Positions 6,151 to 61,150 of a stretch of DNA of 64,000 bases are shown here, piece after piece (position 1 is the stretch's first letter; each line of letters starts with the position of its first letter). The position numbers and the translations under genes are program-made. The notes under the pieces were generated by a model that did no database searches, was not told where the DNA came from, and was given only the letters and a program-made list of their open reading frames with translations. Location: NCBI GenBank assembly GCA_905178155.1, contig CAJINV010000004.1, forward strand, positions 7,563,820-7,627,819, written 5' to 3'. This DNA is from Amoebophrya sp. A120 (lineage: Eukaryota > Protista > Dinoflagellata).

Positions 6151-9100
6151 TTACAGCTCCTTCTTCATGTGCCGCTCCTTCAGAAAGATTCCGGCATCGG
6201 TGTCGAGCTTCAAGGTCACCGGACCGAGCCGGAGCACCGTTTTCCAGAAGACGACGAACAAGCGAAAAAACGGCATGTAGAAGGGCTGGAACAGCAACAC
6301 ACCCGTGAAGTACGGCGCCGATTTGCACCACGGGGACCCCGCAAACCGGAAGCCCAGAAACGACGCAAGCCAGTCGACATCCACCTCTATCAAATGCAAA
6401 AATGTCTGGGTCGGGAAGAGTCATGCTGCTTTTGCATGACGCGTAAGGTCTGGCATGGAAGCTGTAGCATCACAGATTTCGAGAAGCTTCCGCAATGCCG
6501 AATTCCGCAATGCCACATTTTGGTGACAGAAAGTGGGCAGCTTTTGCTGCCTATGCATGAGAGATTTTTATGTGTTGTGAAATGCGCATCACAAGTTCGC
6601 ATTCCTCCAGACCCAGACATATTTGCAGTTGATAACCTCGTAGCCGTCCTTGAACAGGTCGAAGTGGTAGTCCTCCAGATTCGCTGGCACGCCGCCGCAG
6701 GAAATTGTATCAAACGCAAATATGTCTGGGTCTGGAAGAATGCAAGTTTGTCATGCTTGTTTCACATGACTCTGAAATCTGTCATGTTGGGAGACTAAGG
6801 GCAGGGCGTCCCTGTTTAAAATCAAGACTACAAACTTAAGCCGCGTACTCGGTAAACTCTAAGGTACAAACTTGAACAGCGCGATTTCTATCGAGAGACA
6901 GCAACAGAAACTCCTGGGACGGCTGGGACGTGAGTTTTGTTGATATCTAGGTAGAAATAGCACTGTGCAAATTTCGTATCCTAGCACCGAGGGAACCAAA
7001 ATAAAAAGTAAAAAAGGAGTGAAGCGAAACACTATGACACAGCCCCATCTACATCAAAAAACCATCCTAGAAGCTGGTAGCTCGAATTCTAGCAAGACAG
7101 GAAAAAGTCTTGAAGAGGAGTTGCGATCGTAGCACCAACATCCAAGTCCAAGGACTAACATGCAAATGGCCAGGTAAACCTCGAGGTCGGTATGACATGC
7201 ATGACAAACTATGACGACCAGGATAATGTGCTACGAGACCAGAGGAGAGCATGACCAAACCGAGAAACCGCATGACAAGAGAGGGCCACGTTGCAACCAA
7301 TTCGAGAACCAGGATGGAAACATGAGTGCGAAAAACCCCTAGGAAAAAACTAAAGAGTAACTAGTATATAAATAAGTAGCGCGCGTAGTAAAACTAGACC
7401 GGTCAAACCACTTCTGCCTGTACCGTCTCTATTCTTTTTTCCCTTGCCACCCTAAGAAGTGGCACAACAATGCTAATCATACAAGAGCGATTTGATCATG
7501 GCGTGCAAGAACAGGCGCACGTGCCTAGTTTTCATTCCCAAAAGGCAAGAGCCTCTGCATACAAAATGCCAGAAACATCGGTCAAAATACAAACAAGATC
7601 GGACGACGCCGATGAAACCGAAGTGACTCTGAAATCTGTCATGCAAATTACCCAAGACCCCCATTTTGCTGTCATGCAGAAACGCAGTTTGTCATGCAGA
7701 ATAGGCAACACCTAGAAGCTCACAAACTTGTCATGCTGAGCCAGCACTTGTGGTCTCCTCATGATACGCCACCCAGCATCACAAGTTTCCAGACCCAGAC
7801 ATTTTTGCAGTTGATAAATTGGAATCAAGTACAAGATCGCAAGCTTGGCGGACCACATCAGAAGGCAGTGCATGGGCATCATGTAGGCATAGAGCAACCC
7901 CTTGCGGTGCGCGTCGGCGTCTTTCAGGGTCAGACCCTCGATTCGCACCGGGTAGTAGGTGCCGCGCAACTTCTTCAAAAACCGCAGGTACAGCGCCCAG
8001 CCCGCGTCGGCCCACTTGTCCGCGAGGTAACCGGTTACCGGGAAGCGGAAGTCGACCCAGTCGAAGGAGTAGTATCAAGTGCAAAAATGTCTGGGTCTGG
8101 AAATTTGTGATGCTAAAATATGAGTGGTGGGCGCACTGCAATACGCAGTCAAGCATGACAAATTTTTGAGCTGCTCTTGTGTTTCCTTTTCCGCATGGCA
8201 AACTGCGTTTCTGCATGACAGACAAGAGGCCCTTTTCCTGATCCTGCATCACAGATTTATGAGTCATGCCAGACACGCATGACAAACTTGCATTCTTCCA
8301 CTTCCAGACCCAGACATATTTGCATTTGATAAGTAGTGAATCGTTTCGATTCGGTCGGCGTGGTGCTCCTCCTTGTGCTTCTTGCGGTCCGCGAAGCCGA
8401 AGAGTTCCAGTGTCTGGTAGAACCACTTGGCGCCGACAAACCGGGCGCTCCACGGGTTCCAGGAGGTGAAGGCGAGGGTGTTGGTGTGGTACCACTCGTG
8501 CACCCGCACGTCCTATGCATTGCAAAAGTATCGCACTCGTATGCAGGCATTACAAATTTCCCCAGCATGAGAATTGAAATTTGTACTGCGGATTTACCTT
8601 AAGAAAAAGATTTGTAATGCATGACTGCAAGACGAGTACGATGCTTTTGCACAGGATACGTCCATCCACACGACGACGTTCCAGATCAGCGCGAACATCG
8701 GGTCCCAGCAGTTGATATGAAATGCAAAGATGTCTGGGTCTGGAAGAATGCAAGATTTGTCATGCATATTTCTCATGACACATGATGCCTGTAATGCATG
8801 ACCCAGCACCGCAGACTACTTTTAGAGGGCTTTCTGATGCGCCTTCCGCATGAGGAATGCCCTGTCCGCGTAGCACAAACTGGAGCCCTCTTGCTGGTCA
8901 TGCAAGAATACAAATTTCTTTAGAATCCAAAAACACCATGACAAGTTGCATCCTTCCAGACCCAGACATATTTGCAATGCATAATTGACGAAGATCAGCA
9001 TGTTCAGCGCCCACAGCATGGTCGGCTGGTGGATGACCACACGGTACACGTGCGGCGTGCGGGAGTACATGCTATGGAACAAGTGTCAGAATGGAAATTC

Positions 9101-10837: not shown

Positions 10838-12583
10838 TCAGCTCTGCGCAAACATGACCATTTCCGGCATTGCCTTTTCTAAAATGTCTGCCTCCTTGTG
10901 CGCGATGTTTTCATTTGGGACGTCCAGAGGGTGTTGCTCTACAAACAGCATCTTCCCGATCAAATTTCCGCCGTTGTACCGGTCCGGCGGCGCTCCCTCG
11001 TCGAAGAGCGACAACTCGTACCAGTGCGGCGGGTCCGATTTCGGCGGACAAATTTGCAAAAAATCCTGCTGCGCACCCCCAACCCGGGCTTTCGCCATCC
11101 GCCCGAGAAAAGGAATCTTTTCCGACCACTGCAAGATCGACGCGGAGGTCTTCGCCCCACCGAAAATGTCGTTTTGCAGCAAATCGAAGAATTCGCTGCT
11201 ACCCGCGACCGCTTATCAACTGCAAATATCTCTGGGTCTGGAGTGGAAGTTTGTCATGCTTGTCTCTCATGGCTCCGAACTCTGTGATGCATGAGCAGGA
11301 TGAGAGTCGCTTGTCTGTCATGCAAAAGCGCAGTTTGCCATGCAGAACTCACAACAGACAGCAGCTCAAGAACTTGTCATGCTTGGCTGCGTATTGCAAT
11401 GTGTCCACCATTCCCAAGCCAGCATCACAAGTTTCCAGACCCAGACATATCTGCAGTGGATACTGCTCCGTCCTTCGCAGTTTCGTCGTCTACTTTGTGG
11501 TATGCAGTGCAAAAGTATCGTACTAGTAGAAATCGCATTACAAATTCGGTCAGCATGACAAATGAAATTTGTCATGCGGTTTTACCTTGGTATGGAGATT
11601 TGTCATGCATGACTGCGATTACTACGAGTACGATGCTTTTGCAATGCATATGTGGAAATCGTAGACCACGTCCCAGTGCACCTTCCCGGTGGTTTTATCA
11701 ACAAACTTCGCGTGGATGTTTTCCACCTTCTTACTCAAGTCGATCCGCGGCCGTTTGTCGATGTTCCCGGTCAAAAAAGACGCGGTCGGGGGCATCGGGT
11801 GGCCGGCGGCTCTGTCGCAGATGAAGTTCTTGTTAAATTCCCCCTTGTCGTCAATGAAGTTGGTCGCGACGATATCCAAGGAAAAAACTGTGTTAGTGTA
11901 ACTATCTTTGGCTGACAGCATTACAAATTTGCAGCTCTACATGACAGAGAAAACCTCTCATGCGTGGCTTGTAAGGGAAAACACACACGAAGAGAGGACT
12001 TCATGGCTGTCTAGCATGACAGGTGTAACTCTGTTGCATGTTCAGTTCTGCATCACAGATTTACACTTACACAGTTTTTTTCTCGCATAGACGATGTTGG
12101 GGGACTGGTAGGCGACGGTGACTTTCAGATCGTGTTTGTACGCTTTGTGATAGTTGTTGGTTTGCAGGTCCAGGAGTTTCCGCCCCTCGTCGATGAAAAA
12201 CTCCTGGTATGGATTGTAAAAATGTCTGGGTCTGGAAGGTTGGAACTTGCATTGTAATGCTAGCTTTCCATACCTAGAGCTAGAAAATCTGTATTGCATA
12301 ACCAACAAAAGTCGCAGCCTCTTTTGTCATGCAAAAACGCAGTTTCTCATGCGCATTGCCTATGAGAAACCGTTTCGGGAAGTTGTCATGCCGGACTGCA
12401 ACATTCGGAAATGTTTTCATCATGCACATTTTAGCATCACAAGTTTCCAGACCCAGACATTTTTGCATTTCATACCTGGTTCTTCATCGCCGCGCTGGCG
12501 ACGTGATCCGTGATCCCCTTGACCGCGGTGTTCAGCGGGGCAGGAAACCCCGCCGCGAGAGCAGTGCCGACGGCGCCTGACAT
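10838..12583 (-). CDS. Hypothetical protein (~280 aa), 5 exons
   Basis: MSGAVGTALAAGF...; four introners removed give an 843-nt continuous ORF ending at stop 10838. Confidence 0.75.
11214..11462. mobile_element. Introner family A (249 bp)
   Basis: TIRs; DR ccgct/ctgct; join KDGA|VAGS. Confidence 0.88.
11501..11650. mobile_element. Introner family B (150 bp)
   Basis: TIRs; DR tgtgg; join YDFH|KVDD. Confidence 0.9.
11873..12089. mobile_element. Introner family E (217 bp)
   Basis: TAT..AAAAAACTGT TIR; DR gacga; join PNIV|ATNF. Confidence 0.88.
12208..12474. mobile_element. Introner family A (267 bp)
   Basis: TIRs; DR cctgg; join MKNQ|EFFI; GT-AG register possible. Confidence 0.9.
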
Positions 12584-15850: not shown

Positions 15851-18800
15851 CTAAATATGCACCGGCATGCACCCTTCGCCGTAGTAGACAAATGGTACAT
15901 TGCCAATCTCCGCGGCGGTTTCCCCAAAGAAGCTGTTACTTATGATCAGTGCCGTCGCACGGGACAAGCCTATGTACTCGGTCCAGGCGCGATGGTAGCC
16001 CGCTTGAGACATCCCAGCGGTTCGGTCCACGTGCTGGATGGCTGCCGTTGATGTTGAAGACCCTGTGTTTCTAGTTGGACTCGTCGCGCTACTGCCACTA
16101 CTACTATCTGCTACTGCAACGAACTCGTTCTCCACAAAGCTGGCGACTTTCCCGGCTTGCACTAAGGCCTGGACTTCCTCGGTGACCCAGAACTGCTCGG
16201 AGTCGGCAGAAAAGTACCAGGGCGTGGATGATTCCAAAATCTCCGCCTGGACTAGTTTGTCCTCCACTTGGACGGCGCATTCCAAAAACGAGGTTATCGT
16301 CGTCAACCCGTGCCGGGGTGGGTCTTTGAAGGAGTGCAGCGTTTCGTTCCCCGCGCGGAAGTGCAAACCGAGAAAGCTTTTCTTCGCCCCGAACTTACTC
16401 AACGGGTACAGCACTTTCGCGTGCGGCTTGAACAAAATGTTCCAGACCTGCGCGACCCAGCCGGAGGTGAAGGCGAAAAAGCCGTAATTATGCACTGCAA
16501 TAGTATTGTACTCGTATAAATGCATTACAAATTTGCTCAGCAACATGAGAAATAAAATTTGTAATGCTAATTTACCTCAAGGAAAGGATTTGTAATGCAT
16601 GATTTCCATACGAGTACGATACTTTTGCACTTGATAGTAATCCTCCTGCAGCCAATCGTGGATCAAGGCGTGGTATGCGGTGCAAATATGTCTGGGTCTG
16701 GAAACTTGTGATGCAAGGAACGGAATAGTGAAAACAAAACACTGTAATGCGCTGCCCAGCATGATAAGTTTTCCCGTGGTTCAGAGTTGCGTACTCGGCA
16801 TGAGAAACTGCGTTTCTGCATGACAGGCAAGACGAGCTCTTCGCGGCCACGCAATACAGAGCTCAGAGTCATGCCAGACTAGCATGACAAATCTCGCAAT
16901 CTCCCAGACCCAGACATATTTGCAGTGCATACGTGGAAGCGGAGGTTCGTCCCGATCACGAGCACCTCGGGGGACACGCGGAGGCCGCGGAGTGTGCGGT
17001 CGACCTGGTGCTCGGAGAGGTCGACCAGTTGCACTCGGTTGTTGAGTGGTAAATCTTCTATCCGGACCCGCCAATCGAGAAAGGAGGGTAACAGCACCTC
17101 TAACAACGGCCGTGGGTGTCGGATGTCGATGAGGAATCCTCTGTGCGTCGCGACGGCGAGCAGAAACAGGGACAGGATCCCGTGCAGCCGATCTCCGTGT
17201 CCGCCGCACATGGGCAGCCCATAGCACGCGGCGACGATCGCGCCTTTCAGGTTGCTTGGCTGCCCGGACCGCCACTTTCGGTGCTGCTGGATGTAGTCCG
17301 CCATGATTTGCTTGAACAAATCGGTTATAAATTGAAAAAGTAACGTGCTCGTATAAATCCATTACAAATTTTCTCAGCATGAGAAATAAAATTTGTAATG
17401 CGGATATACCTTGAGAAAAAGATCTGTAATGCATGATTGCAATACGAGTACGATACTTTTGCACAGGATATCGGTGCTTCTTTGCCGGTGGGACAAGCCC
17501 GCGAAGAGCTTCGTCTCTTCACTCGTACTATGCATTGCAAATATGTCTCGTGGGTCTGGAAACTTGTGTTGCTGGTACTCGCATCGCAAAGTAGCCAGTT
17601 GTGCAGCGTGACAGCATCACAAGTTCTTTTCCTCCGCTGTTTGCGGATTCATTCGTACTTAAACTTAGCATTACAAACTGCCTCTTCTCAGCACGCCAAA
17701 AAAATTGGCCATCAATCCCATTTATGCATTACAGATCTTGTTGTCCTTGAAGTTCTGCATCACAAATTATCCAGCCCCAGGCACATTTGAATTGCATACG
17801 TGCGCAGCCCGATGGAAGAAACTCCCTGGTCAAAGTGTAGGTTGGGAAGATCGGACGCTTCGGGGTACCGGAGCCACCGACAAGAAACTGTAAGTAGTGA
17901 TTTTTTTGATTTTCTTTTCGTCTTCCAATGGACGCATGGCGATAGCAAAGGTAAATCAAAATCAATACACATACTCCGCTCGTCTGTGCATGAGAACAAC
18001 TTTCGCGTCAAATATCATAGTGTACTACCTGTAGTATTCGGCTTCAAATTATTGATCAAATCGTGGTCAAAAAACGTTCCACAGAGATCCGGCCCCTGCC
18101 TGGTGTACTGCTTCCGCCTCGCATATTCGATAAAAGTATGACCTGCAAAAGTATCGCACTCGTATAATTAAATGCATTACAAATTGAAATTTCCTCAGCA
18201 TGTGCATGGGAGATAAAATTTGTAATGCATGACTGCAATACGAGTACGATACTTTTGCACAAGATAAAAAGTCACTGGCTGCAACGTTTTCGCCGCCACC
18301 GCCGCGCCGGCGAACTCAGTACTGGCTGAAGCCTCCGTCTCTCCGTCTTCAGATATTAAAGCAGCACTCGCCGTTTCGTTGCTTGCGGTATCTTCTATTT
18401 CACTGTCTGCTTCCATTTCTACTGCGGGACCACGAGCTGCCGACGGCCTGGTGACTTCTATGATGGTTTCCTGCACAATTTGCGCGATCTTGTTCGGGCT
18501 CAGCTCGTCGAGCGTGGATTCCGTCGGGAAAACCACCACCCGCCCGGGAATTTCGTGCTGGGCCTCCACTTTCTCTTGCGGGGGACGGATGGCGGACAGC
18601 TCGGGGACCCTGTTTGGGATAGAAGAAAAGGGAGTATAGTACGTGCATCACATAAGCGCTATGTATTTGTGATAGAAAAGGGACAACTTCTACGTCCAAT
18701 AATAAAGTGCCTGAAGTTCATGTTCCATCACTTCAGTGCAGACCGATAGTGGTCCTGCAGTTTTTCTTCTTGTGGCAGACGCAGATCACAATAAACTATT

Positions 18801-27663: not shown

Positions 27664-28295
27664 AGAATACCATGCGGCACGCGCGCAGCCCCGGGGGCAT
27701 GGCAACACACAAATGGCCAAAATTGGCCTTCTTTGTCTCTTTTTGACCCGGCCGACTGGCCGAATCCCCACGGTATGGCCCAACTTCCCGTGCCAAAGTC
27801 TGAGGTCCGGCCGCCTCGCCAAAGTCAGACGCAAGACTTTCAAAAGACTTCGAAAAGACTTTGAAAAGACTTTGGAAAAGACTTCGAAAAGACTTTGAAA
27901 AGACTTTGGAAAAGACTTTGGAAAAGACTTCGAAAAGACTTCGAAAAGACTTCGAAAAGACTTTGAAAAGACTTTGAAAAGACTTTGAAAAGACTTTGAA
28001 AAGCGCTCCTGTTTTTGCATGGCCAAAATTGGCCATACCATAGGGCGAAGCTTTCAAAAAGCGCGCACTTCCGGGCGCTTTTCCCAAAGTCTTTCCAAAG
28101 TTTTTTCAAAGTCTTTTGAGCAGGAAAACTCGCGACTTTTCTGGCCGCAGGCAGAATCGGGCCAGGGAATTGGCTGCGTTTTTAACACGTTCCCCGAGCG
28201 GATTCGGGCACTTTGGCCGTCCCGAACACCGCGCCATTTGGGCGAACCAACTCCCACCGTGCCCCCGGTGCGAGGCGCGTGCCGCATGGTATTCT
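27664..28295. repeat. Foldback/MITE-like segment with inverted arms
   Basis: Perfect 20-bp IR AGAATACCATGCGGCACGCG (27664-27683 vs 28276-28295), further CCGGGGGCA pairing inside, and TGGCCAAAATTGGCC on both sides of the minisatellite. Confidence 0.55.
27833..28003. repeat. Minisatellite, 15 x AAAAGACTT(CG/TG/TGG)
   Basis: Directly visible tandem 11-12 bp units. Confidence 0.95.
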
Positions 28296-34551: not shown

Positions 34552-35228
34552 GGCTTTTTGATTTCTTCGTCGAGATGAAATGGTCGTTTAAGCTTATGAA
34601 CATAAAAATTGGAGCCGCTTACATTAGAATAAATGTGTATGTGGCTCTTGGTAGAAGAGTACTACTACACATCATGATCATGTTTGGAAGTATGCGACCT
34701 GCCACCTTCGTCTTTTGACGCGGTGTCGGCAGTGGTCCTTTTTATTCATGTTTGTCTGTCGAATGCGTACCGTACTTTCTTCTCTCATACGTTCGCACCG
34801 TTTGGTGGTAGGGGTTTCGCTGGAACACTCATCCTGTACCTGTTCCAGGAAAAGAAACTTTATAAAAAGTTTGTTTCTGATTATGCTGTCGTGTAAAAAA
34901 ATGTGTTAAGCTGTGGTGAGGAACTACTTAAATGTGCGGGAGCCATGTACCAAAACAGGATTAGATGATCTGAAATCTTCTGAGGAACTTCTGATGTGGA
35001 GTTGCATCGCTATCGCAAGAAAACATCTCTATGACACTGAAAACCTTGACAACCCTGATAAAGGCAAAGTTTACCGATTGACAAAAAAGAAAAAACGCAA
35101 ATTTAAGTTTATTACTGTGCATCAAAAGCTATTGGATAAAAACCTTTTAGGAACATTTTCCCCGCACAAGAAGTACTTATACAAAAAATCGTAGAAGAAA
35201 ACCGCACGAACTAGCAAAAACATCTCGA

Positions 35229-38200
35229 TCACATTACGACGCAGTTCGTTGTCTCCTCTTCCTCTTTTGCTTTCTCCCTCGCGGCTTCCTCGCGCCTTCG
35301 CTCCATTAAATCCATCGCGAACATGCGTTTTTCCGCCTCCAACGCCCGGTTTTTTTCCTTGTTTGCTTCCCGGTACTGCGCGGCCGTGGCGAGGAATTTC
35401 AGGTCTGGCGGGTCGGTGACGAGCCCGTCCGTGCGGACCGCGCCGGCGATCACCGGGGGGAGGCTCCGCGGGGTCAGCTGCGGCGACCCGAGTTTGTTCG
35501 CCACCGACTCGTATCAATTGCAAAAGTGTCTGGGTCTGGAAGATTGCAACTTGTCATGCTAAATCTGAATCTGTGTTGCATGATTACCAAAGACTGTCCA
35601 CTTTTGACCTAATCGAGAGGCAGTTTCTCATGCAGGATAGGCATAAAGTGATAGAACTCTCACAGAGTCTGTCATGCTAGGTCCTACATACCAGACCTCA
35701 TGGGTCAAATAAAACCTGCATGACAAGTCTGGTACTCTTCCAGACCCACACACTTTTGCATTTGATAACTCGCGCCGAGAGGGCGGGAGGGTGGTGGTGA
35801 TCACGGAGAGCTTCGTGGAGGTGGGGGAAGGGGGTTGGTTCGGGTTGTAGAAATTGTTCTTGGGGGTGGTGTTATAAAGGGGGGAGTTCTGTTGATTACT
35901 GATGGCAGTGCCCGGACTGTAGGAGGAGGAGGACCTGGTCGTGTTGAAATTATCTCCGGGCGCCGTCGGGAACCTGCTTACTACGGAGGTGCTAGGAGGA
36001 CTAGGCACTCCTGTCGGTGTAGTGGAGTACGCATTTGCATGTGGTTGTTGTGCTGCGTAGTAGTTATTAACGTTGCCGTATAACGCAACACCGCCTCTCG
36101 GTGTGGTCAGCGGTGCCACTGGACCCAGCATACTCAACATCCCGGCTCCAGCCGGGGGAGCCTGCAGACTGCCTGCGTTTGAAGATCCGGCGAAGGTAAC
36201 TACATTTCCAGCTTGTGGTCTTGGCGTCAGTGACTGCACTGCGAGACCATTGACGTTCTGGCGGCCGACTGCCCCGCTATTTGTCGTGTCGTATCTGCTG
36301 CTCAGAAAATCTTTGGTACTAAACAGTTGAAGTCGCGAGGACCGTCCATTGGTGCCTCCACAACTCGCGTTGCTTGGAGCTGGCTCCGCACTCTTACTGC
36401 GTTGCTTTGTGCGGAGGAATGTTGACGTCGATGGATAATTGTTGTACACTACACCACTTGATGCAATCGGAGGACTCACTGGCGTGTGTGGGGACACCAC
36501 GGATGCCAACAAACTTGGTGGCGGGGTCAAGCTCCTCTGGGTTGCGTACTGTAGATTGTGCTTCGACGCGAAGAGAACGTCGTTGTAGTGCGCAGGAGTA
36601 GCTCTACTGTCGTACCCATTCGTCATTCCAAAGCTTTCCGCGTTGGTGACAATGGAGGGGATATCAGACACGATTTTGGACCGCTCCATGTACCGGCGGA
36701 ACTTGCGTTTCTGCTCCGCATATCAAATACAAAAGTGTCTGGGTTTGGAAGATTGCGAGATTTGTCATGCTTGTCTGGCATGACCAAAACGCTTGTGATG
36801 CGTGTCAAAGTAGAGACCCTTTTGCCTGGCATGCAAAAACGCAGTTTGTCATGCGAAAAACGCAACACAAAGAGGCGCAGATATTCATAAATATTTCTCA
36901 TGCTTGCCTGTGCATTACAGAGCATTCACTATTCCCAACGCAGCATTACAAGTTTCCAGACCCAGACATTTTTGCAGTTGATACCGCACTATAGTCCGCG
37001 GCAGAGGTGGGATCGGCGAAATTGATTTTCGCCTGGGGAAAGGGGACCTGGATGGGCGACACGATGTTCTGTCGATTCGCGGAAAAATCCTTGATCAGTG
37101 GCTGTTTCTTGTTCTTCGAGTTCATCACGATTATTCCGTTCGACGACGACGCGGCCCCGCTCAGTTGTAGTCCGAGTCCCTCAACAGAGTTGTTATTATC
37201 GAGAAAATTGTTTCTGCTGAAGAGATCAGTGTTTGCACCCGGTCCTCCCGGGGGAGATGCTACGGTGCCCGGAGAGAGGGTTCGCTTGGAGGAGTTCGCG
37301 ATGGTCTCGGTGTCGAACAAGAATTCTGTGTTGTTTGTTCCAGGAAAAGAAGATGAACCAGGACCAGGAGGATTATTGTTCACGATTTCCGCCAACTTCA
37401 AAGCCACGTCGCGATCGTGGACAGCGATATGCATTGCAAAAGTATCGTACTTCTCGTATTAATCATTTATTAATCGCAATCATGCAATACAAATTTCTTT
37501 CTCAAGCCAAATCCGCATCACAAGTTTCATTTCTCATGCTGAGCAAATTTGTCATGCGATTACTGATAGTACGATTACGATATAGTTTTACACTGCATAA
37601 GCGATGTTTTTCTGCAGCCCCTGTCGCACATTTGCGGCGGTGACACAGCCGGCTTTCAACCGTTGCACGGAGTTTTCGTTCAACGTGTCCATCACGTCCG
37701 GTTGCGGAAACATGTTGCTAATCTGCAGACTATGGATTGCAAATATGTCTGGGTCTGGAAACTTGTAATGCTAAAAGTGAATGGTTGTAGACGCACTGCA
37801 ATACGCAGCTACGCATGAGAAATTTATTGGCTCCCATGTCTTACTTACGTATTTCGCATGGCAAACTGCGTTTTTGCATGACAGACAAGAGGGCCTTTTC
37901 GTGTCTATGCAACACAGATTGTTCTCGAGTCATGCCAGACAAGTATGACAAACTTGCATTCTTCCAGACCCAGATCGATATTTGCAATCCATACAGACTG
38001 TGGGGCAGCGAGTTCGTGTCCAGAATTTCCGAAATTTTCTGGTTGTCGTACTTCGTACTGCTTGTGTGCCCCCACGTGCTCATCCCTAACCGGTGGTCCC
38101 ACGTGTTGTCGAGCAAATTCACCGGCTTTTTGTTGTAGAGGGTTGTCAATTCCGGTTGGTGGTTTTGCAACTGGGACGTGACGTAGGGGTTTTGTAGCGG

Positions 38201-41200
38201 AGAAGTCGGCGAGGTGTTTCTCAGGATGTTGCTCGAGGACGTGTTCTTGCTGTTGTCTTTTTTAATATTCTTTCCACTTCTACTAATCTCTTCTACTGCG
38301 TGATTCTGATTTTTCATCCCTGCTGCGGCATTAGTCATCTCATCGTGGTTAATTATATTCGCCGTGGTTTCCGCTATCGTGGACGGAATGCGCATGATGT
38401 TGTTCCGCTTGCTGTTCACGTCCATTTTGGACAGCAATTTGCTTCGCGCATACGTACTCGCGGTGCTGCCACTGCTTGGATTTTGCACGGACATCTCCTG
38501 CAGCTGCCGCACGGCGTGCTGAATATCGCCCAGATTTTTACTACTCTCCCGGTAATTAATATCGCGGCCGAAATTCTTACCGGGAGGACTGTTCGGCTGG
38601 GACAGGTACTGCTCCTCAGCCGAATACTCCGCTTCTTTCTGCAGATTCCTGCCGGCGTCGGTGAAAAAGTACTGCTCGCCCGCACTCGCCGAGGGCTGAA
38701 ACGGTATTTGCGCGTCGTCCGAGAGTTGGGAAATCTCCGTCAGCAACTGCCGGGTGGTGCGGGTTTCTAGTGTTTGCAGAGCCTCGCCCTCCATTTTTGT
38801 CATCCTCGTCGTGTTTGATAATAAATTGGGCACCTGTAGTTGTTGTATTCTTTCTTCTGCGGCAAGAACCGCAAAAGGAGCTGCAACAGCAGCACGGCTG
38901 CCAATCTCGGCCGCGTAGGTCGTGATGTTGCTCGATGAAAATGCATTTGATACTATCTTCCCTATAGTCGCCGCGCCGGCCACCGCCACCTCCCCCCGCG
39001 GGCCACAGTCCAACGTCTTTTGCTGCAGCTGCGCGCCCGGGGTCAGCGCTTTCTCCGCGGCCTTGTACTGGTTCCAAGTCGCGCTGGCGCCTTTCGAGTT
39101 GTTCTTGCGGGGACTGTTTTTATTTCCCTCCTCGTCATTCATCTGAAGTAGATTCGGGTACACCGAGGGCTCCAAGTTACGGCTTTATCAAATGCAAAAA
39201 TGTCTGGGTCTGGAAGGTGGCAACTTGTCATGGTAAATCTGACTGAATCATGGAAAAATCTGTGTTGCATGACTACCAAGAGCTGTCCACTTTTGACCGA
39301 GATAGGATGGAGTTTCTCATGCAGGATGGGCATGGCAGAGACCTCGCGGAGTCTGTCATGCCAAGTCCCGCATTCCAGACCCCATGGGTCATCGAAAATC
39401 TGCATGACAAGTTTACACTTTTCCAGACCCAGACATTTTTGCACTTGATAGGCTCTCCTGTGCGGATATTTCCTTTACCGGCGGCCGGGGGGAGTGGAGT
39501 AACAATTTGCGGCCCGTGTGGTCATTATCTGCACCAGCGCCTGCTGCTTCCTTGGACCGTCGCTGGAAATTATTATACTCGGGTGGTGGCGGCGTCGTTC
39601 TCCCGCGCGGGGGTGTAGCGGGGCAGCTCAGAGACCGTGGCGTGGAAAGAACTCCGGTGAGATTATTGTTGTCGAAAACCCCGCCGGGCGTGCCGAATTG
39701 GTAGGGTCGGCTGAAAAGATCCAAGCGTGCGGCTTGTGCCGGGGAAGGTTTCTTGCTCGGGAGTTTGTCGGCCGTGGGACTGTTCAACATGCTAGGTGTC
39801 CTCGAGGTCCCGGGGTTAGGAGAGTGGAGAAGTTGTGGAGTTGGCTTTATTTGTTCCGCCACCACCAGCTGCCCTTTGCTGTTCCTCGGACTGCTCGTGA
39901 TCTCTGAGGGCGGCGGTGTCGTACGCTGTCGTGGGGTCGTCGTCGTGGGGCCAGCACTGCTCGTGTAATTGTTGTTCGCCAGATCTTGTTTTAGCAAGTT
40001 CTGTCCACCGCTCAATCGCCGTGGCGTGGAGAATCCCCCAGCAGTGATAAATGCAGACGTGCTTTGCAACTTGGGCTGTTGCTGATCGAAATTTTTATCC
40101 ATCTTTAACATTTTCACTCCAGTAGAATTGTTCAAGGCTGTATTTGTTGTTGGGCTTCTTGGTGGGGCCGACGTCGCGGTGTTCTTGACTTGACTTGTGT
40201 CCAGGAAGAAGGTCTGTAAATCCTTCTCCAACGCGTTGATTTTATCCGATAGAGATTCCAAAGACGGCTGGGGTAGGGGTGGTGTCGATGTAGCTCTTGG
40301 GGCTTGATGAAATCCACTCTCCACTGCTGGAAGAGAAATAAACGCAAGCTGCGGCTGCACTTGCTCCCCCTCACTGAAAAACTTCATCGGCGGGCCCTGC
40401 TGTGCCTGATGTTTATTATGTACTACACCACTTGCGGCAGCACCTCCACCTCCTTGACTGGACGTAATTCCTCGTAGTTCGGAGACTTCTCTACTCCGCT
40501 GGCTTTTTTCCCGTGCTGCCGCAGCCGCCATCGACATGGAGGTGGCATTGGCAGCAAACGCGAAGACCGCGGCGTCGGTGACGTTCGGGTCCTGGATGTT
40601 GATGCGGGCGCGCTTCAGACTATCTGTCGACAGCGACTTCCGGGGATCATTTTCATTTTGCAGTAAAATGTCGTTCCTGCTGTACTTCGTGTTGTTGTTC
40701 TTCCCTTCAGCTCCTGCGCTATCGTCGTTCTCCTCAGTGCTGCTATCGTCACTGGCTTCTTCCGAGTCAAACAAGTGCGCCATGCTGTTTTCATTTTCAC
40801 CATTCTGCGACAGGTGGTTTCTAATCGCGGAGCCGAATAGGGAGCTGCTGTTGTTCTGCGAACTACTTCTTTCCTTGTTCTGGAGAAACACACTGGCACG
40901 GTCCACGGCGCTTTGCAACACGGCAAAAGTCTGCTCGCTTTCTTCGTCGTCTTGCTCCTGGTGGCTACCTGTGTTCACCACCAGAACATCATCATGATCC
41001 CCAGCGCTCCTGTTCTGCTTGCCCTCGGCAAAATGGTCCGACATCCTCAGAGTACTGCCCGTCATGGCGCTGCGCATATTAAAGAACGGGGAGGAGTGCA
41101 AGAACCCCGGTGTTGAAGATCCCCCTGGTGCAGCTCCTCCTGCCGGGCTGTTTGTACCCATTCCACTTAACAGCCCGGCCTGCTGCAATCGCTTCTGTTG

Positions 41201-44200
41201 CATCGCGTCTGCTGGGGAAGAGGACGACGGCGTGATCTTGTTGTTCCCCGCAGAGTTTATTACGTCCCCCCCCGCCGGCGGCGCGGCGACGGGATCGCTC
41301 TGGTCGTGCTGTCCTGGTTGCTGCAAAAGACCTGAGCCCGACTGCAGTTCTCGTCCTGTATCAAAAGAGGTATTCGACCGCAAGAGCCCATACCGGTTGT
41401 CTTCCTGCCTCATGAACCGCGGACTGGGCTCGCTCTTTTCCCGCTCGCGGAGCTTCACCAAGGTTAACGCCGCCTTCATGTCACCCGCACCCGCGGAGAT
41501 GTTGAAGATCCTTTCCAAAACGTCCGCATTTTCAAGCTGTCCCGAGACCGCGTAGTCATCGACATTTGCATTCGATGTTGTGGACTGCATCGACATGGTA
41601 CTATCACGCATCAACTGCCGCGAAGAGGAGTGCCTGTCTTGAGGTGCTAGTCCACCCTTGTTGCGAAATGCCAACAGCCCAGATGAATCACTGTGCGAAA
41701 AGCTGTTTGGGCCGTTTTTCGGAAGTAGGCCTCCCGCTGGCGTGGTCGTTCCTTTGCTGTTTGCCGGAGTAGACACGATGTCCACAACTCGCGGGGCGGC
41801 TTTGTTGCCACCACTTTCGCTTGCTCTACTTGGCAAAAGATTTTTATCTTCTTGTGCATCTCTAGCGCCTACTGCGTTTTCCACGGGCGCCGCTGAACCG
41901 GAGGAGTCCACCATGATCTCCCCCAAGTCGTTCAAACGCAGGGATCCGCGTATGGATGTGTCAGAGTTGAAATCGACAAAGTTGAGATAATTTGCCATGC
42001 ATAAAATGGATGCCAGTTGGAGCCGAGTTTCTAAGTGGCGCATGACAAATTTCGGCGGTCCCGAAATGCAGTTTGTCATGCTGTTTAGGCAAAGAAGAGT
42101 GATTTTCTTATGCTACTTTAGCAGCTCGAGCTGTAACCCCAAACAGGCTTACAATCGGCCTCACTTGCCTGCTCTGCAACACACGTGCCTCGGGTCATGC
42201 ATTTTATGCATTACAGATTATTTCAACTTTGACGATTTCAAGCCTGACGCTTCCATACCACGCTGGTGGAAAACACTACCTGTTGTTCCGGACGGAGACA
42301 CAGGAGTAATTCCAGCTGTACCAGCGATCCCGCTGCCATTGGTCAGCGATTTTCGCAGTGACGAAGAAGATGCTCCTGTTTGTTGTTGTTGTTGTTGTTC
42401 GAGCCCGCCGGACAACAAACTCGGACTGCTGCCCCCGGCGGACACCAAACTTCCGCCCGGAGCAGGTACAACTACCCCAGCACCACCGACGTCTTTCGTT
42501 TTCGTCCGGCTACTTGTAGTGCTGTCCTTTTGATTTTGCAACTTTTCCGACTCTTTTTTCTTTTCCGCGTCCTTCTCGATGGTCTGGTTCACCACTTCAT
42601 CGACCCCGCAACACGTGGCGCCGATGTTGGCGTGCTATGCATTGCAAATATGTCTGGGTCTGGAAACTTGTCATGCTAAAATGTGCATGATGGCAACACT
42701 TCCGAATGCAGACCAGCATGACAACTTTCCGGAGCACTTTCTCATAGGCAGCCCGCATGAGAAACTGCGTTTTTGCATGACAAAAATGGCTGCGGCTTTT
42801 GTCGGTTATGCAATACAGATTTCCCAGGAGTGTAAAGCTAGCATTACAAGTTATAACTTTCCAGACCCAGACATTTTTGCAGTCCATACGTCCACCTCCT
42901 CGACGATCTGGGCCGCGGCCATGGAGCTTTCCTCAGCGAGTAATGCATTTAACTCGTTCATGGGGTCTCTCGCCTGCGGGATGTTCATCACTCCCAGCTG
43001 CTCCAATCGGTACCTCACATCTGTCTCGTTCGCGTCCCCGAGCACCGACTCCCGCTCCGTCCGCAAGCAGGTCTGGCGGAAATGCTGCCGGGAATTCGGG
43101 ACGTTGGTCACTTCGTTGTTGTTGATCCTGCCGCAGATCTCCTCCGCCAGCTTCGCCACCCGGTTCTTTTGCAGATACGGCGCGAGACCCGACAACCCCA
43201 GCCACTCCAACTTCTTCTCCAACGGGAAGGACGACTGCCGCACGGAGTTCCGCGCGACCTCGCACACGTCAATCGTATCAAAAGGAAAAATCCCTCCTCG
43301 TCCCCATATCGAAAACGAAATTTGTGATGTTTACATGAGTACACAAATCGACTTGTAATGCTAGAAGGCCAAGAGACGCAGCTGTGGCCTCGTTTGCAGG
43401 CAATTGATCATGCTGTTTCCACTTCCACCAGCTGCCCCCTGTCATGGTGAAGATGCAAGGCTTCATCTCCACGCCAACCAGCACTACAGTCCGCATCTTT
43501 TCCCTTCTGGCATGACAAAGCTGATTTGTGGCCACAAATCTGCATCACAAATTTCTAGTTTGAGTATGGGGTGGGGGCATTTTTCATTTTGATAAATCGG
43601 CGACAGCCGCCAGTAGGTCCGGGCGACCGCGTACTCCTCTAACAAAGGCTCCCGCGTGTTGTGAAACATGACCGGGTCGTCGGTGGATAAGGTCACGTTC
43701 AAACCGCGTTTGAAAAAGGAGAAAAACGGGTTCTTCGCGTACTCCAGAAACAGCGCGTTGTTCGACTGCGGGGAGACGGAAATCCCGATTTGCGCCAGAT
43801 AATACACGTACTGCATCACGGGGGAGTGGTGCAGTCGGATCCCGTGGGCGATCGTATCCGCGAGCAGAAACCCCACGTCCAAATTCAGCAGGTCGCCCGC
43901 CTCCCCGCAGTGCGGCCGGTAGTGGAACTGGTTCAGACCGAGTTTCTCCCGGAGTAGATTCAACACCCGGATGTTCGCGTAGATAAAGTAGCTGTAGTAG
44001 GCGTAGGGTGGATTCGCGTTCTCGAAGCTCCAGTACCCCGGTTCCGTGACCAACCGGTTCCGCCTGTCTTCCGCGACCGCGGTCTGCAGCGCCACCGTGT
44101 CTTCCTGGGACTCGTCATCCACGGTGTCAAAGGCGCCGACGTGGGTTATGGGATTCTCAAATGTTACATTCTCAACTGTAGTTACATGATTTGTCATGCA

Positions 44201-47055
44201 GAAGCGCTATCATGCTTCGCACGCTCAAGCTTCTTCGCATGACAAGTTTTCGACTCGCTAAGTGGCATGCTATACCGTGCAATTATGCAAGGTTCCAATG
44301 CAAGACGCGCAAGGTTCCCCGTTTCACTTTTGGTGTTCTTGCATCACAAATTCATGTACCAGTTCAGAATGTAACGTTTGAGAACGCCATATGGGTCAAG
44401 AACTCCGCGAGGTCCGGATGCTTTTCGGGAAACAGGGTCGCTTCGAAGAGCGGGAGGAAAAGGTTGGAAAGCCACTGCTGGAAGTTTTTCACGATGTTCA
44501 ATTTCCGGTACAATTGGAACAGCCGCGGAAATTGGATCATCCACCGATTCTTCTCCGAAAGCAAAGGCTTCCGCTGGTCTATCAAACGCAAAAATCCCCC
44601 CTCCCCATATCGAAATGGAAATCTGTGATGCAGGATTTGAGGCACCAAATCGACTTGTCATGCTAGAAGGCCAAGAGCCGCCGTCGTGGTCTCGTTTGCA
44701 GGCAATTTGTCATGCTGTTTCCCACTCTCAGCTGCCTCCTATCATGCTGAAGATGCAAGGCTCCCCCACGCCACCCAGCACTACAGTCCGCATCTTTTCC
44801 CGTGTAGCATGACAAAGCTGATTTGTGACAACAAATCTGCATCACAGATTTCCGTTTTGATATGGGGAGGGGGGATTTTTCCTCTCAATATGGTCGGAGG
44901 GAAGGTTGAAGGACAAAGCGCGCGGAGCGTCGGTGGCGGATGGATGGGCAGTTATTGCAGTGAAAAGTGCCCCCCACCCCTGAAAGTGCAAAATTTGTGA
45001 TGCGAAGTTTCCAAATGAAAACTTTCTGTCATGCATGGAAGGAGTATGGATATTTCTGATGCAGAGTCTAGGCGTGTATCGCATCGCCTGCATGACAAGC
45101 GCCGCTCTTGCTGGGGCCTTTTGCAATACAAATTTTTGCTATTCACGATTGAAAACCTGTGATGCTGATAGATGCAAGAGCGCGAATGTTTCATTTGGAA
45201 AGGTTTGCAATACAAATGCTTTCAAGTTCGGGGGTGGGGGCATTTTTCATTGTAATAGCAGTTGTGTCGGATTTTGACGGCGCGACGGTTTGCGGACGAG
45301 CCTGTGTAGTTGCGGACGCAATGAGATTGCATATTTGGATTTCATCTCTGTAACAAATGTCTCGAACTCTTACTCTATCTGTTACGCTTACGGTTACGGA
45401 TCATTGTTGCATGACACATGTATTATCGCCGCGCTCTCAAATGAAATGGCTTGTAGTCGTTTTGTTTCATCGCATCACTACCATGTATAGTACATGTTCG
45501 TTCTCACGCACTTATTTCAACAAAACTTTCTATGCAAAGCACTGCAAATCCTACCTCTCCCCCCGCGTTTCCCCTTTGCAGCACCCATTGCGACAGCTTG
45601 GTCCACTCGTCGGGCGATTTACCGTAGATGCTCAACCGCCACTCCGTGTGGCACCATTCCCGCCTTTCCAGCCCGTTCAGCAGCTCCCTGGTCAGCTCCG
45701 CCAGGTACCGCCCGCCCATCTGGTTGTCGGTTTTCAAAAACACTTCCCGAAACGCGGATTTCCCGAGAGGCGAAAATCGGGAATTAAAAATGTCGAACCG
45801 GGACATAACCCGGTGGTCCGCCTGCATTTCGAACGCGTCCAGGTTCAGTGCGGACTCTTCCACTTCTAGTTTGTCGCAAAAGTCCTGCAAGGTCTGGCAT
45901 TCGACATTGTTATCTTGATTTTCTTCTTTACTCGCTGTGCTGCTATTCTTCTTTTTCACCGTGTAGGAAACTACGTCGTTTTTGTTGTGAATGAATTTCT
46001 TCCTAATGAACTCAAACAAATGCGAGCTGCACATCGCCGCGCTGTGGTGGATGTGGTTGTCCACCTTCACAATGTGGTTGAAATCGACCCCGTTGTTCTT
46101 GTTCTCGGTCGTTTCATCGACGTAGTGGAGCATCCTGTAGAGTTCAAACTTCTTTTCCAACAGCTTCAGCCGGCAGTGCGAATAGGACCTGGTCGGGCCG
46201 TCGGTGCGCAGATGGGCGACGCGGGACAGATCCGTGTAGAACTCCTCCAAAGTCGGGACCTGCTTGGAAAAAAGCGAATTCGGGTCCTTCCTGCTGGTGC
46301 TGCTCCGCTCGCGCTTTCGCGAAGTAGTGGTCGACGCCGTCGGGGAAGTGTGGTCGTGACTAGTATGTTCAACACCTTGAACTTGTGAGCCACTTCTTGA
46401 TTTTCTACCAGCATCACCTAAAGGTCGCGGTCCCGCCGCATTTGTTGTTGTACTAGCTGTTGGTTCTCCTATCGTGTTGTTTTCGGAGCTCGAATTGTCA
46501 CTGGCGGAGGTTCTCGCTTGCGCTTGTTTGTTGTTGTTCGACGTCCGGGTAAAAATACTACTACTTCCTGGAGATGATCCATGTTGTGCTCCATCGACGT
46601 TCCTCGGCGGTGAAGAAGTAGAGGTCAAAACGTTGTACACTGTCACCACTCCGGACTCATCCATGTAGTAGCTGAGCGGCTGCTTTTTGTTCAAGTTCCG
46701 CGCCTGCTGCTTTTCGAGGTTTTTACCCAAAAAACTCCGGCCGCATATGGCGCTCTCAAACGTTACATCCTCAACTGTTACATGAGTTTGTAATGCAAGA
46801 GTAGTAAAAGCCAAAGGAGGGAGGTTGCGCCTCTAGCATTACAAATTCCGCACAGATTTAGCTGCTGTTTAGCCCTTCGCAAATTTGTCATGCGAAGCAG
46901 CTTGATCGTGTGGATCTTGATGGTAGTTTAGCATGACAAATCCATGTAACACTTGAGAATGTAACGTTTGAGAACGCCATACCGCAGGGAGCGTACTTGG
47001 AGCGCAGCTCCAGCAGCTCGCGCAGGTTGCCGCGGACCACGGGGATTTCGTCCAT
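35229..47055 (-). CDS. AMPD: AMP deaminase with a very long low-complexity C-terminal extension (~2,770 aa; 5' end may extend further)
   Basis: KVDNHIHHSAAM, FDIFNSRFSP, EWRLSIYG, FDTVDDES, YRPHCGEAG, LSTDDPVMFH.TREPLLEEY, DVCEVARNSV. 12 introners and 1 GT-AG intron removed give an 8319-nt ORF. Confidence 0.9.
35512..35767. mobile_element. Introner family A (256 bp)
   Basis: TIRs; DR actcg; join SRRE|SVAN. Confidence 0.9.
36721..36983. mobile_element. Introner family A (263 bp)
   Basis: TIRs; DR ccgca; join DYSA|EQKR. Confidence 0.9.
37428..37599. mobile_element. Introner family B, degenerate (172 bp)
   Basis: TIRs; DR agcga; join KNIA|VHDR. Confidence 0.85.
37731..37993. mobile_element. 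Introner family A (263 bp)
   Basis: TIRs; DR cagac; join PHSL|QISN. Confidence 0.9.
39186..39450. mobile_element. Introner family A (265 bp)
   Basis: TIRs; DR ggctt/ggctc; join AQES|RNLE. Confidence 0.88.
41951..42257. mobile_element. Introner family F (307 bp)
   Basis: TATGGA.G.GTCAG TIR; DR ccgcg/ccacg; join HQRG|SLRL. Confidence 0.85.
42636..42888. mobile_element. Introner family A (253 bp)
   Basis: TIRs; DR cgtgc/cgtcc; join EEVD|ANIG. Confidence 0.87.
43276..43594. mobile_element. Introner family C (319 bp)
   Basis: TAT..AAAAAT(C/G)CCCC TIR; DR aatcg; join WRLSPI|DVCEVARNS restores a conserved AMPD motif. Confidence 0.9.
44147..44391. mobile_element. Introner family D (245 bp)
   Basis: TIRs; DR tgggt; join FLTH|VGAFDTVDDE. 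Confidence 0.9.
44580..44890. mobile_element. Introner family C (311 bp)
   Basis: AAAAATCCCCCCTCCCCATATC TIR; DR tggtc; join LPSD|QRKP. Confidence 0.9.
44953..45257. mobile_element. Introner family C variant (305 bp)
   Basis: TATT.CA.TGAAAA.TGCCCCC TIR; DR gcagt; join DTTA|HPSA. Confidence 0.87.
45302..45554 (-). other. Canonical GT-AG intron
   Basis: GAG|gtagg...cacag|GCT, phase 0; frame restored. Confidence 0.7.
46746..46981. mobile_element. Introner family D (236 bp)
   Basis: TIRs; DR ccgca; join YAPCG|RSFL. Confidence 0.9.
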
Positions 47056-51500: not shown

Positions 51501-53643
51501 GTATGTAGTATTGAATACTACATCGAGATCTTCGGAATAATTTTTGTAAAAATTCCGCATCTGCTGTGCCCGCAAGAGAGGCCGCAACCTCTCCCACATT
51601 TGCGCCGCCTGCTTGTTGTGTTTTTCGTCCGGGGTGGGATCGTGTTTCAGCCTCTCTAGAGCAAGTTGTGCGTGGACCACGTCTACATACTGGCCGATCG
51701 TCCTGGACAGGTGCGATGAAGAATTTGTATTCAGTGCAAATATGTTATTTAGGTCTGGAAGGATACAACTTGTGGTCGTGCTACCTTTGGACGGTACATA
51801 AAATCTGTATTGCATAGATAGCAAAAGAGGTCCAGTTTTTTATACGTCGCGGAGAGGGCATTTCTCATGCGGTATGAGCATCAGAAAGCCCACCTCGCAG
51901 AATCTGTGATGATGCTAGTACTAGGGCATGCATCACAGACATCATGGGTCAATGTCATGGAAAATATGCATGACAAATAACCTGGCATCTTTCCAGACCC
52001 AGTAGATCGATAGTTGCAACGCGTATGCCGGCTTCAGTCGTTCCTCGATTCGTTGTTCCTCGATTGTCCGATATTGAACAAAAAAAGCACGTAGGTGTAA
52101 CTTTGTCGTGATGCGCAACATGCAAGATGATTGCCTCTGTCATGCTGGACATGCATGACAGGTCCCAGCATTCAAGTGCCTTTTCACGTGCTATGATCTG
52201 CGCATGACAGGTTTATTTTGCTGTAATTATGCTGTTCCGCCAAATCCAAAGAAGTTACACCTACAACAATGTTTTTTCTTCACATATTCGACCACCGTCA
52301 CGAACCTGAAGGTCGTGCAAAGCAACGTCCTCCAGAAGAACCGTACTGAGCTTCTCATGCGGCTGAATTTTTATCACGACAGGAGGCTGCAGCTCCGGGT
52401 CTTGTTCGGGGGAGGTGCCGATAATTTTCTCCTTCGCGGGGGAAAATTTCCTCCGGGTCGACGTTTTTAGAAGTTTACGTTTTACTACTTTTACTTCCGC
52501 TCGACCACGTTTTACTACTTTCCTCCGGGTCGACGTTTTACCACTTTCCCGCTTTCCTCCGGGTCGACGTTTATTTACTGCGTCTACTTCCGCTTGCAGA
52601 TGCCAGTTCCAGGGGTCTGCTTCGAAGTTCTTAGGGAGATCTTCTCCTGCGACAACTTTCCGCCACAGCAGATGCCGTTGGTACAGCTGAAACGCATCCA
52701 TGTTCACCAGGTCCTTGAGTTTAATTAGCAGATGCGGGTACTTCCTAGCTCTCCTCGTCGTCGTCCCAAGCGGTTCTTGTGACTTTTGCCCTGTGAGCAC
52801 CTTCTTGTTTGAGGACATCTTCAACCCAGAAGGCGCAGCTGTTCTTCGTTCCCTTGTGTCCTCAATCACCACCTCCACGACGGTGTCGTTGTCCAGCGGC
52901 GCAGCGTCGCGGGCCGCCAGGGAGTTAGTAAGCGTTGACTGTTCCACTTCGGTAGTAGAGGGGTCATAACCTTCCCCGCCGCGCGGAATAGGATTAAGAT
53001 CGACTGATATAATCGGCCTTTGTGCCCTCGACGAAGATGTTGAACTCGGTTCCTCAATCCAGGGAGGACTAGGACTTCCCCGTTTTTCGTCGACGTCGTC
53101 GTGGATAGTTTTTGCGACGAGTGCACGCCCTTCATCTCCACGACCCGGAGTAGGAGAGCTCCAAAGTAGACCTCCAGACAACTGCTGGCAGGGGCCGTCT
53201 TGGTCTTCGTCATCATCGTCGCTGCTCGATGAATACGAAAAATGCGAAGGAGCCGACGACGACCCAAGCCCCGAGCCTCGACTAGTGGAGCCAACTACAC
53301 TGGAAACGAGTGGTCTACAACTTCTTCCCGAATAAGCTACATCGTCACCCCTGCTTCGTACATCAGAGGAGGAGCCCTCAGAAGCATAATCGTGAGTAAA
53401 AAACACGGTCGGTCCCCGGGCCGCCACCGCACGTCTCCAGTTCCCTTCGGTAAATTCCCAGACAACGTGCTCGGCATCGTAGGCATCTTTCACGACAGAG
53501 CGAGACCCAGCGACGCGCACAAGTCCCGCTTCGCTGAAGAGAATCACACCGGTGCAGCAACTGATGAAGATTCCTGCCGCAGCTCGCCAGCCACGCTTAG
53601 CAGGCAACGAGAATGAAAGGCGAAGGCAACGTCGGCAGAACAT
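48512..53643 (-). CDS. Hypothetical protein with N-terminal hydrophobic segment (~1,122 aa), 8 exons
   Basis: Seven introners removed give a 3369-nt continuous ORF from ATG 53643 to TAA 48512; no family recognised. Confidence 0.7.
48803..49064. mobile_element. Introner family A (262 bp)
   Basis: TIRs; DR gcctc; join PSEA|LREQ; GC-AG register possible. Confidence 0.9.
50097..50251. mobile_element. Introner family B (155 bp)
   Basis: TIRs; DR gatcc; join TGRD|PELY. Confidence 0.9.
50313..50578. mobile_element. Introner family A (266 bp)
   Basis: TIRs; DR tcttc; join SEEEE|KKRS. Confidence 0.88.
50652..50860. mobile_element. Introner family E (209 bp)
   Basis: GAAAAAACTGTTTCACTGTG TIR; DR aatag; join SSAI|SSSC. 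Confidence 0.88.
50909..51231. mobile_element. Introner family C (323 bp)
   Basis: TIRs, right end GTA; DR aaatg; join SQH|LFHV. Confidence 0.87.
51728..52025. mobile_element. Introner family A, degenerate, direct repeat lost (298 bp)
   Basis: Eroded TIRs; flanks atttg/tgccg; removing element +5 nt restores LKPA|SSSH. Confidence 0.7.
52072..52286. mobile_element. Introner family E, degenerate (215 bp)
   Basis: TAT..AAAAAA..GTAGGTGTAAC TIR; DR tccga/ttcga; join DGGR|TIEE. Confidence 0.8.
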
Positions 53644-57960: not shown

Positions 57961-58089
57961 TTCTGACGCCGGAGGGACACATTATAGTCTAACTTTCTTG
58001 CGTATGGGCAAAAAGGTAAAAAACAAAGCTACGACATGTTGCAGCACAATGGAGTAATACCTGATTATGTTCATCGCCCGACGCCCCGG

Positions 58090-61000: not shown

Positions 61001-61150
61001 ATCTACAGGAGGCGTTGGGCGCCACTACCACCTGCTTCTGTTGAAGCACTGACGTACATAAAATGAAACCCCTGATCTGCACTGTAAATTGATGCGTCAC
61101 AGATTCAATCAAGAAACTTGCCTTGACTCAGAGTTTTTCTGTGGTAGATA
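58090..61150. repeat. Complex higher-order repeat array
   Basis: TACGCTGT..TCCTG unit at ~58105, 58434, 59280, 59888 and 60613; ~59040-59590 nearly identical to ~60400-60930; internal inverted arms. Confidence 0.85.

Follow-up and report, generated by a model that had tools for sequence, protein, structure and literature searches.

An introner-rich window of the Amoebophrya sp. A120 genome

We analysed a window of 64,000 nucleotides from the dinoflagellate Amoebophrya sp. A120 (assembly GCA_905178155.1, contig CAJINV010000004.1, positions 7,563,820 to 7,627,819), within whose minus-strand reading frames lie 42 transposon-like elements that begin with TAT and end with ATA, nearly all of them between 5-bp direct repeats. 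In eight cases the two copies of the repeat differ by a single base, and these differences mark where the element is cut out: every marker that could be read fits one and the same cut position.

The elements span positions 6388 to 52286 and occur in both insertion orientations. They carry terminal inverted repeats and an A run, start with TAT and end with ATA or a one-base variant of these, and are mostly 130-323 nucleotides (nt) long, the single exception being an element of 1109 nt (6708-7816) with ordinary ends, a perfect repeat and internal open frames that are all short. The flanking repeats are perfect in 33 cases, carry one mismatch in eight and match at one of five bases in the last (51728-52025). 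Duplications of 4 or 6 bp were rejected, as only 5 bp fits. Flanks taken from different elements matched at all five bases in 46 of 20,000 random pairs, so the observed repeats lie far above chance, and excising each element together with five bases restores long minus-strand frames. Related copies are found in both orientations relative to transcription, and the orientation of an element carries no strand information.

Because this anatomy matches the published description, the 42 elements are the introners of the A120 genome paper (Farhat et al. 2021, PMC7789003). The two descriptions share arms that start with TAT, continue with some 7 variable bases and then have an A run, direct repeats of 3-5 nt over the borders, a length of about 240 nt, a hairpin, and mixing with GT-AG introns within one gene. 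The host, the TAT inverted repeats with the A run and the size of the direct repeat all agree, and the occurrence of repeated families that are removed from transcripts is seen here through joined contigs, the RNA status of the runs being a guess. With terminal inverted repeats, a target duplication, no coding capacity and insertion in both orientations, the elements also resemble MITEs, that is, non-autonomous terminal-inverted-repeat transposons; the genome paper reports no transposase in A120 (PMC7789003).

One host gene encodes an AMP deaminase of 2772 amino acids (35232-47055, minus strand) and contains three of the marker sites, further introners and one GT-AG intron, which was located near 45301-45554 (minus strand) via the annotated protein. 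Its exon at 39455-41944 (minus strand; 830 amino acids) is 100% identical to the 2772-residue Amoebophrya sp. A120 protein, and the gene model with introners removed equals the database protein across 2307 residues.

Mismatched repeats mark a single cut position

Identical flanking repeats conceal the cut from read aligners, and mismatched repeats lift this ambiguity. At each of the eight marker sites, all on the minus strand, terminal inverted repeats bound a TAT…ATA element whose flanking 5-bp repeat has one differing base; seven of the eight differences are transitions. The original prediction had called six of them synonymous (8716, 11214, 17529, 39186, 41951 and 52072) and two non-synonymous (33732, ACC/GCC; 42636, GAC/CAC), and had proposed all eight as natural markers of the cut. 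Its counts and all its codon calls were correct, and the markers work: spliced contigs yield the allele at five sites, all in one register.

These contigs come from four runs (X1-X4) in which the elements are skipped, whereas contigs of a further run (X5) retain them; X1-X4 represent two samples of one study, and their RNA origin is only guessed. In what follows, repeat positions and copies are given in transcript order. At 33732 (introner 33732-34012, with repeats 33727-34017), which lies in a gene with a weak Pfam match to the BCNT domain, the copies differ at position 1 (ACC/GCC), and the X1 pieces 33001-33726 and 34013-34597 are contiguous in one record with zero differences, so that the upstream copy (Thr) is kept and the intron is 33728-34013. 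The same holds at 39186 (39186-39450, with repeats 39181-39455; position 1, GAG/GAA), where the contiguous X1 pieces 37994-39180 and 39451-41945, again with zero differences, keep the upstream GAG (intron 39182-39451). At 41951 (41951-42257, with repeats 41946-42262; position 3, CGT/CGC) an X1 piece breaks off at 41945 when 241 letters remain, and the one visible side of the joint implies that the upstream CGT is kept (intron 41947-42258). The joint at 11214 (11214-11462, with repeats 11209-11467; position 4, GCA/GCG) runs from 11207 to 11462, two letters fitting either side, and retains the upstream GCA in all four runs (intron 11210-11463). The downstream allele is kept only at 8716 (8716-8983, with repeats 8711-8715 and 8984-8988; position 5, AAC/AAT), where X2, X3 and X4 join 8711 to 8985 and retain AAC, X1 agreeing from its piece ends (intron 8712-8984). 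At a sixth site, 42636 (42636-42888, with repeats 42631-42893; position 2, GAC/CAC), annotation rather than reads supplies the allele: the annotated A120 protein carries the upstream Asp, in the same register (intron 42632-42889). For the two remaining markers, 17529 (17529-17798, with repeats 17524-17803; position 2, CGC/CGT) and 52072 (52072-52286, with repeats 52067-52291; position 4, CGA/CGG; no piece at this joint among those listed), the introns are predicted at 17525-17799 and 52068-52287, with CGC and CGA, respectively, as the alleles expected to be kept.

The upstream copy is thus kept at positions 1, 1 and 3 (run X1) and 4 (four of four runs), and the downstream copy at position 5, and a single register fits all six sites (the five contig junctions and the annotated protein at 42636). 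The exon retains repeat bases 1-4 of the upstream copy and base 5 of the downstream copy, and the intron has the form N-TAT…ATA-NNNN (register 4 below). Assembly error at the markers is unlikely, because the kept alleles equal those of the contigs and X5 spans the 33732 element with no differences; the skipped allele is checked in DNA at 33732.

These observations speak against a sliding junction as the main mode, one of the two explanations that had been offered for the synonymous bias, since five junctions show one allele each in a single register and 11214 and 8716 agree in four of four runs. Strong sliding, with about half of the cuts in each copy, is very hard to credit. In the X1-X4 contigs we found no second joint or alternative letter at 8716 or 11214, contigs being a source from which minority alleles are dropped; the allele check that had been suggested for all eight junctions, here run on contigs, shows one allele at each of five, all in one register, with minority alleles invisible. 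Excision of the elements from DNA in some life stage, the joined contigs then being DNA, would suit runs whose RNA origin is a guess, and yet X5 has the 33732 element within one contig, the depth of X1-X4 varies by gene and falls to zero in an intergenic spacer, and the introns were validated by RNA-seq in the genome paper (PMC7789003), all of which makes this the most improbable of the alternatives.

For a larger sample we used a pattern scan of assembly JACKZZ01, which yielded at least 153 loci (266 kb, L001-L153); all counts for this related genome are among the loci listed. It stems from another strain or species, as one of its proteins is 67% identical to the A120 ortholog. Element ends were called blind to the repeats, and the 280 elements comprised 212 with perfect repeats, 46 with single and 8 with double mismatches, and 14 matching at two or fewer of five bases. 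After one duplicate was dropped, the 14 low-match elements were set aside and two without flank were removed, 263 were retained, of which 220 with a frame margin of at least 5 form the confident set. Frames were called with a second-order coding model (38/38 in cross-validation), which replaced a fourth-order model that had scored 25/34. Loci L023 and L033 have exons about 95% alike and an identical element with identical near flanks; either a copy recently shared between them or a collapse in assembly would account for this.

For this genome we took register 4 as given, with one test site. The element at L012 has mismatches at positions 4 and 5, and a cut in register 4 yields Glu-Glu, the residues found in the A120 ortholog, whereas register 5 gives Glu-Gly and register 3 or less Glu-Lys. 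In this element (L012 607-850) the intronic base at +1 is a likely derived G that creates a GT start, a single case.

Repeat identity and element removal

The original prediction had alternatively supposed that removal needs identical repeats. The A120 introner at 51728-52025 (with flanks 51723-52030, minus strand; 5' end TAC), which was outside its set, has flanks matching at one of five bases, and removing the element plus five bases joins one frame of 1122 amino acids, a frame also kept by plus two or plus eight. It is an old, degenerate introner whose direct repeat is nearly gone, 41 bases from the 52072 element. Among the 14 low-match elements of the related genome, three have mis-set ends and five show coding signal on one flank or none; where both flanks carry coding signal, the repeat-less elements (five of five) stay in frame once the element plus five bases is removed (by arithmetic, one third to the fifth power, or 0.004, by chance), and a sixth near the coding-signal threshold agrees. 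One of them, at L035, sits between matches to Cyclin_N and Cyclin_C (the latter below the Pfam cut-off), and these flanking halves argue against a chimeric join; at L073, retaining the whole downstream copy leads to a stop. Ortholog searches for two repeat-less elements found nothing, which is weak evidence. Three further elements (L039 975-1302, L005 1910-2128 and L069 1595-1874) have the repeat offset by exactly 3 bases, a shift that a ruler could tolerate; one resembles an 8-bp duplication, and only L069 has near-threshold coding signal on both sides.

Since repeat-less elements stay in frame, repeat identity is likely not needed for removal. An explanation in which removal requires matching copies, for instance because exon end and intron end pair to one guide, can point to the roughly 80% of repeats that are perfect (33/42 in the window, 212/280 in the related genome) and to a weak rise of mismatch with inverted-repeat decay (rho 0.14, p 0.02). 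It must also accommodate the exact splicing of mismatches that flank the cut (positions 4 and 5), the in-frame elements matching at 2/5 or fewer, and a fourfold mismatch of 8.8% (19/216) that comes near the median nearest-neighbour element divergence of 12.5%, itself an upper bound; moreover, it would penalise both mismatch classes alike and would not increase the synonymous share. We regard it as improbable.

The synonymous share of mismatches

The excess of synonymous mismatches had been taken to mean that the intronic copy is not free to drift. The null implied there (about 27% synonymous) omits mismatches arising in the exonic copy. In our null the junction is fixed, every base of the repeat exists once in the exon and once in the intron, and the synonymous share is 2s/(2s+(1+omega)(1-s)). 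Random changes have a synonymous share of 0.24-0.28, and about 42% is already expected when the junction is fixed and the intronic copy free, because half of the mismatches arise in the exonic copy. Conditioned on mutation type, the window shows 6/8 synonymous mismatches against 3.3-3.5 expected, and P(6 or more of 8) is 0.048-0.063 at omega 0-0.1, 0.018 at omega 0.5, and 0.09-0.12 when stratified by position as well, so that the excess over a proper null is borderline.

In the confident related set 23 of 47 mismatches (19 of 37 single ones) are synonymous. The fixed/free model expects 20.6, 19.5, 18.6 and 16.2 of 47 at omega 0, 0.1, 0.2 and 0.5, respectively (P = 0.28, 0.18, 0.12 and 0.027), whereas a model in which both copies are used expects 36.9, 30.7 and 20.6 at omega 0.1, 0.2 and 0.5 (P < 0.0001, 0.014 and 0.81). 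The synonymous share is thus nearer 50-55% than 75%, and the excess as originally stated is mostly expected. What may speak for the original inference is a deficit in the pooled data, where 19/216 fourfold sites (8.8%) and 23/819 non-degenerate sites are mismatched: their ratio of 0.32 (confidence interval, CI, 0.18-0.58) compares with at least 0.5 under the null, that is, fewer amino-acid changes than predicted. Amino-acid severity did not discriminate, with a mean BLOSUM score of -0.27 for the 26 observed changes, -0.22 for random mutation and -0.16 for 38 accepted changes of a strain pair. A modest residual deficit of amino-acid-changing mismatches is possible.

Such a deficit would follow if register 4 were dominant and a minority of transcripts were cut elsewhere in the repeat, so that both copies would be partly translated and amino-acid-changing mismatches partly purged. 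Besides the pooled ratio, the fitted sum of intronic freedom and omega (0.81, 0.45-1.45, in the related set; 0.68, 0.40-1.17, pooled; 0.58, 0.36-0.94, with all calls) is in line with this leaky sliding, as is the lack of stops among 69 alternative alleles, where one or two are expected. The fitted sum is also lower at positions 4-5 (0.51) than at positions 1-3 (0.81), with overlapping intervals. On the other side, this trend lacks significance, as does the independent confident set taken by itself at omega 0.2 or less, and each site shows one joint and one allele, the same in all four runs at two sites. On balance we consider leaky sliding unlikely, though the least unlikely of the alternatives that concern the register.

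Element ends and the removing machinery

Placed in register 4, 261 elements have G (84), A (66), T (56) or C (55) as first intron base and show no AG preference at the 3' end (21/261). They are not introns of the U2 type with a GT or GC start and an AG end, GT-AG being found in 8/261. Variation at the element ends is asymmetric. Among 268 oriented elements, the T at +2 has no variants, compared with five at its 3' mirror (only C variants being detectable), and the third element base (+4) has five T to C changes, whereas the mirror A at -7 has none of that type and one other; the strand asymmetry gives a Fisher p of 0.008. The end detector accepted only ends starting TA, TGT or CAT, equally on both strands. 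Because a transposase or a plain hairpin would constrain both ends alike, the asymmetry points to reading in RNA. A U held at +2 is a spliceosomal rule.

Two kinds of enzyme may be considered for a cut in this register. The remover may be the spliceosome, guided by end motifs and favoured because the T at intron +2 is the sole end base without variation; the A at seven bases from the 3' end, which hardly varies, may, speculatively, be the branch nucleotide. In Table S4 of the genome paper the second base is T in each of the nine main A120 splice pairs, and U2, U4, U5 and U6 are present in A120 (PMC7789003). Alternatively, a non-spliceosomal nuclease that measures the hairpin, together with a ligase, may act in this same register, as proposed for the nonconventional introns of Euglena, an explanation that differs from the preferred one only in the enzyme. 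The ends of the 11214 element do fold together and leave one base unpaired at the 5' end and four at the 3' end (z -5.4); Euglena introns have spacers of 3 and 5 bases (PMC12501133); there is no G+1 or AG rule; and U1 was not found in A120 according to PMC7789003. Strand-specific selection on RNA pairing, however, was not seen (228 G-U against 220 A-C pairs; folding similar in sense and antisense, p 0.59, n=262), the variable positions 4, 5 and 7 of the arm show no covariation in the largest family (n=113), where position 14 does, and both the held U at +2 and the presence of U2, U4, U5 and U6 are at odds with this route. We therefore lean slightly towards the spliceosome and hold the Euglena-like route to be possible but doubtful.

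Other features of the window

Besides the introners, the intergenic part at 58000-63650 holds a cluster of TAT…ATA units with common flanks, without the 5-bp repeat and arranged as degenerate duplications of 500-550 nt; these units are likely parts of a larger repeat. An 11-bp tandem array of 15 copies lies between genes at 27833-28117, with an inverted copy close by. Across the window and loci L001-L153, the insertion phase of introners is skewed, the repeat beginning at the third codon base in 118/261 (p 0.0002), and targets are enriched for C at position 2 and G at position 4. The viral contigs compared gave no matches.

Discussion

The kept bases at five mismatch junctions fit one cut position, and it is on this ground probable that A120 introners are removed at a fixed offset from the element ends, the synonymous bias reflecting mostly selection on the exonic copy and a small sample. 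The repeat would be a target-site duplication created at insertion, and its mismatches would be later point mutations in either copy. The machinery would take its distances from TAT and ATA, 1 base on the 5' side and 4 on the 3' side, and would require no G at +1, no 3' AG and no repeat identity.

Several points weigh against this reading. Contigs lose minority alleles, so that minor sliding could go unseen; the alleles at 33732, 39186 and 41951 rest on one run (X1), and X1-X4, from two samples of one study, have a guessed RNA status. Reads of the raw RNA runs X9 (82 reads) and X10 (2) match the window, nearly all of them only in part, on element fragments and not on exons. By arithmetic, five sites agree with some single cut by chance in 5/32 patterns, and the ortholog test at L012 concerns a single site, in a protein of low complexity with about 67% identity. 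Frame evidence gives the removal length modulo 3 only, and assembly can collapse repeats. The null depends on omega, for which one fast-evolving strain pair gave 0.50; with omega at that value the data reject the fixed/free model (P 0.027) and fit the use of both copies (P 0.81). With the 43 low-margin elements included, 33/61 mismatches are synonymous (P 0.066 at omega 0, 0.014 at 0.2), and with all frame calls kept the pool is 39/69 (P 0.019 at omega 0). Finally, the end asymmetry is post hoc and comprises 10 events.

The elements themselves were already published; the markers supply what the genome paper lacked, the position of the cut. The legend of its Fig. 3 describes splice sites as variable relative to the hairpin and the border as unknown, whereas we find one register, partly foreshadowed by a remark on four bases upstream and by the N-T splice pairs (PMC7789003). 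None of the publications listed in our searches settles the A120 register or makes use of mismatched repeats, and the word 'mismatch' is absent from the supplement text of PMC7789003; Fig. 3 and Figs. S19-S25 of that paper, the introner-survey datasets and Roy et al. 2023 are places that could show it.

The working of the A120 elements is similar to that of the nonconventional introns of Euglena, in which inverted repeats join the ends, GT-AG is lacking, and cuts fall at set spacers from a paired motif, the 3' spacer being longer than the 5' one (PMC12501133). The Euglena motif, however, is CAG/CTG with spacers of 3 and 5-6 bases and a purine at the exon start, as shown by knock-in (PMC12501133), whereas A120 has TAT/ATA with spacers of 1 and 4 bases and a held U at +2, as suggested by natural variants only. 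The A120 elements do not fit N3-CDG / CH'G-N5-6 plus purine and are therefore not members of that class. The introners of Micromonas, Symbiodinium and Florenciella are likewise non-autonomous terminal-inverted-repeat elements that leave mRNA length unchanged and draw one or both splice sites from the target duplication, and they differ in co-opting GY or AG from the target (PMC9860276, PMC11282704); in A120 any target works, in both orientations (AG in 21/261, full GT-AG in 8/261). In Yarrowia, Trichomonas and Giardia the 3' cut also lies a short, set number of bases away from a motif upstream of it, and the held A seven bases from the A120 intron end falls in the range of their branch-point distance (PMC2483917). 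These organisms keep a strong ACTAAC-type branch motif and AG (PMC2483917), whereas the A120 elements have neither, and branching here is putative.

More than 60% of A120 introns are spliced although they lack GT-AG and no U1 is detectable, and our results address the open question of how this is done. [quoted passage not shown] More tentatively, a spliceosome lacking U1 might follow a ruler code, cutting 1 base before UAU and 4 after AUA and branching at the A seven bases from the end. If this were true, transposon-born introns would be removed in this way, by the tens of thousands, in A120 and its relatives and, with no G+1, AG or repeat identity needed, an insertion in either orientation would instantly be a clean intron.

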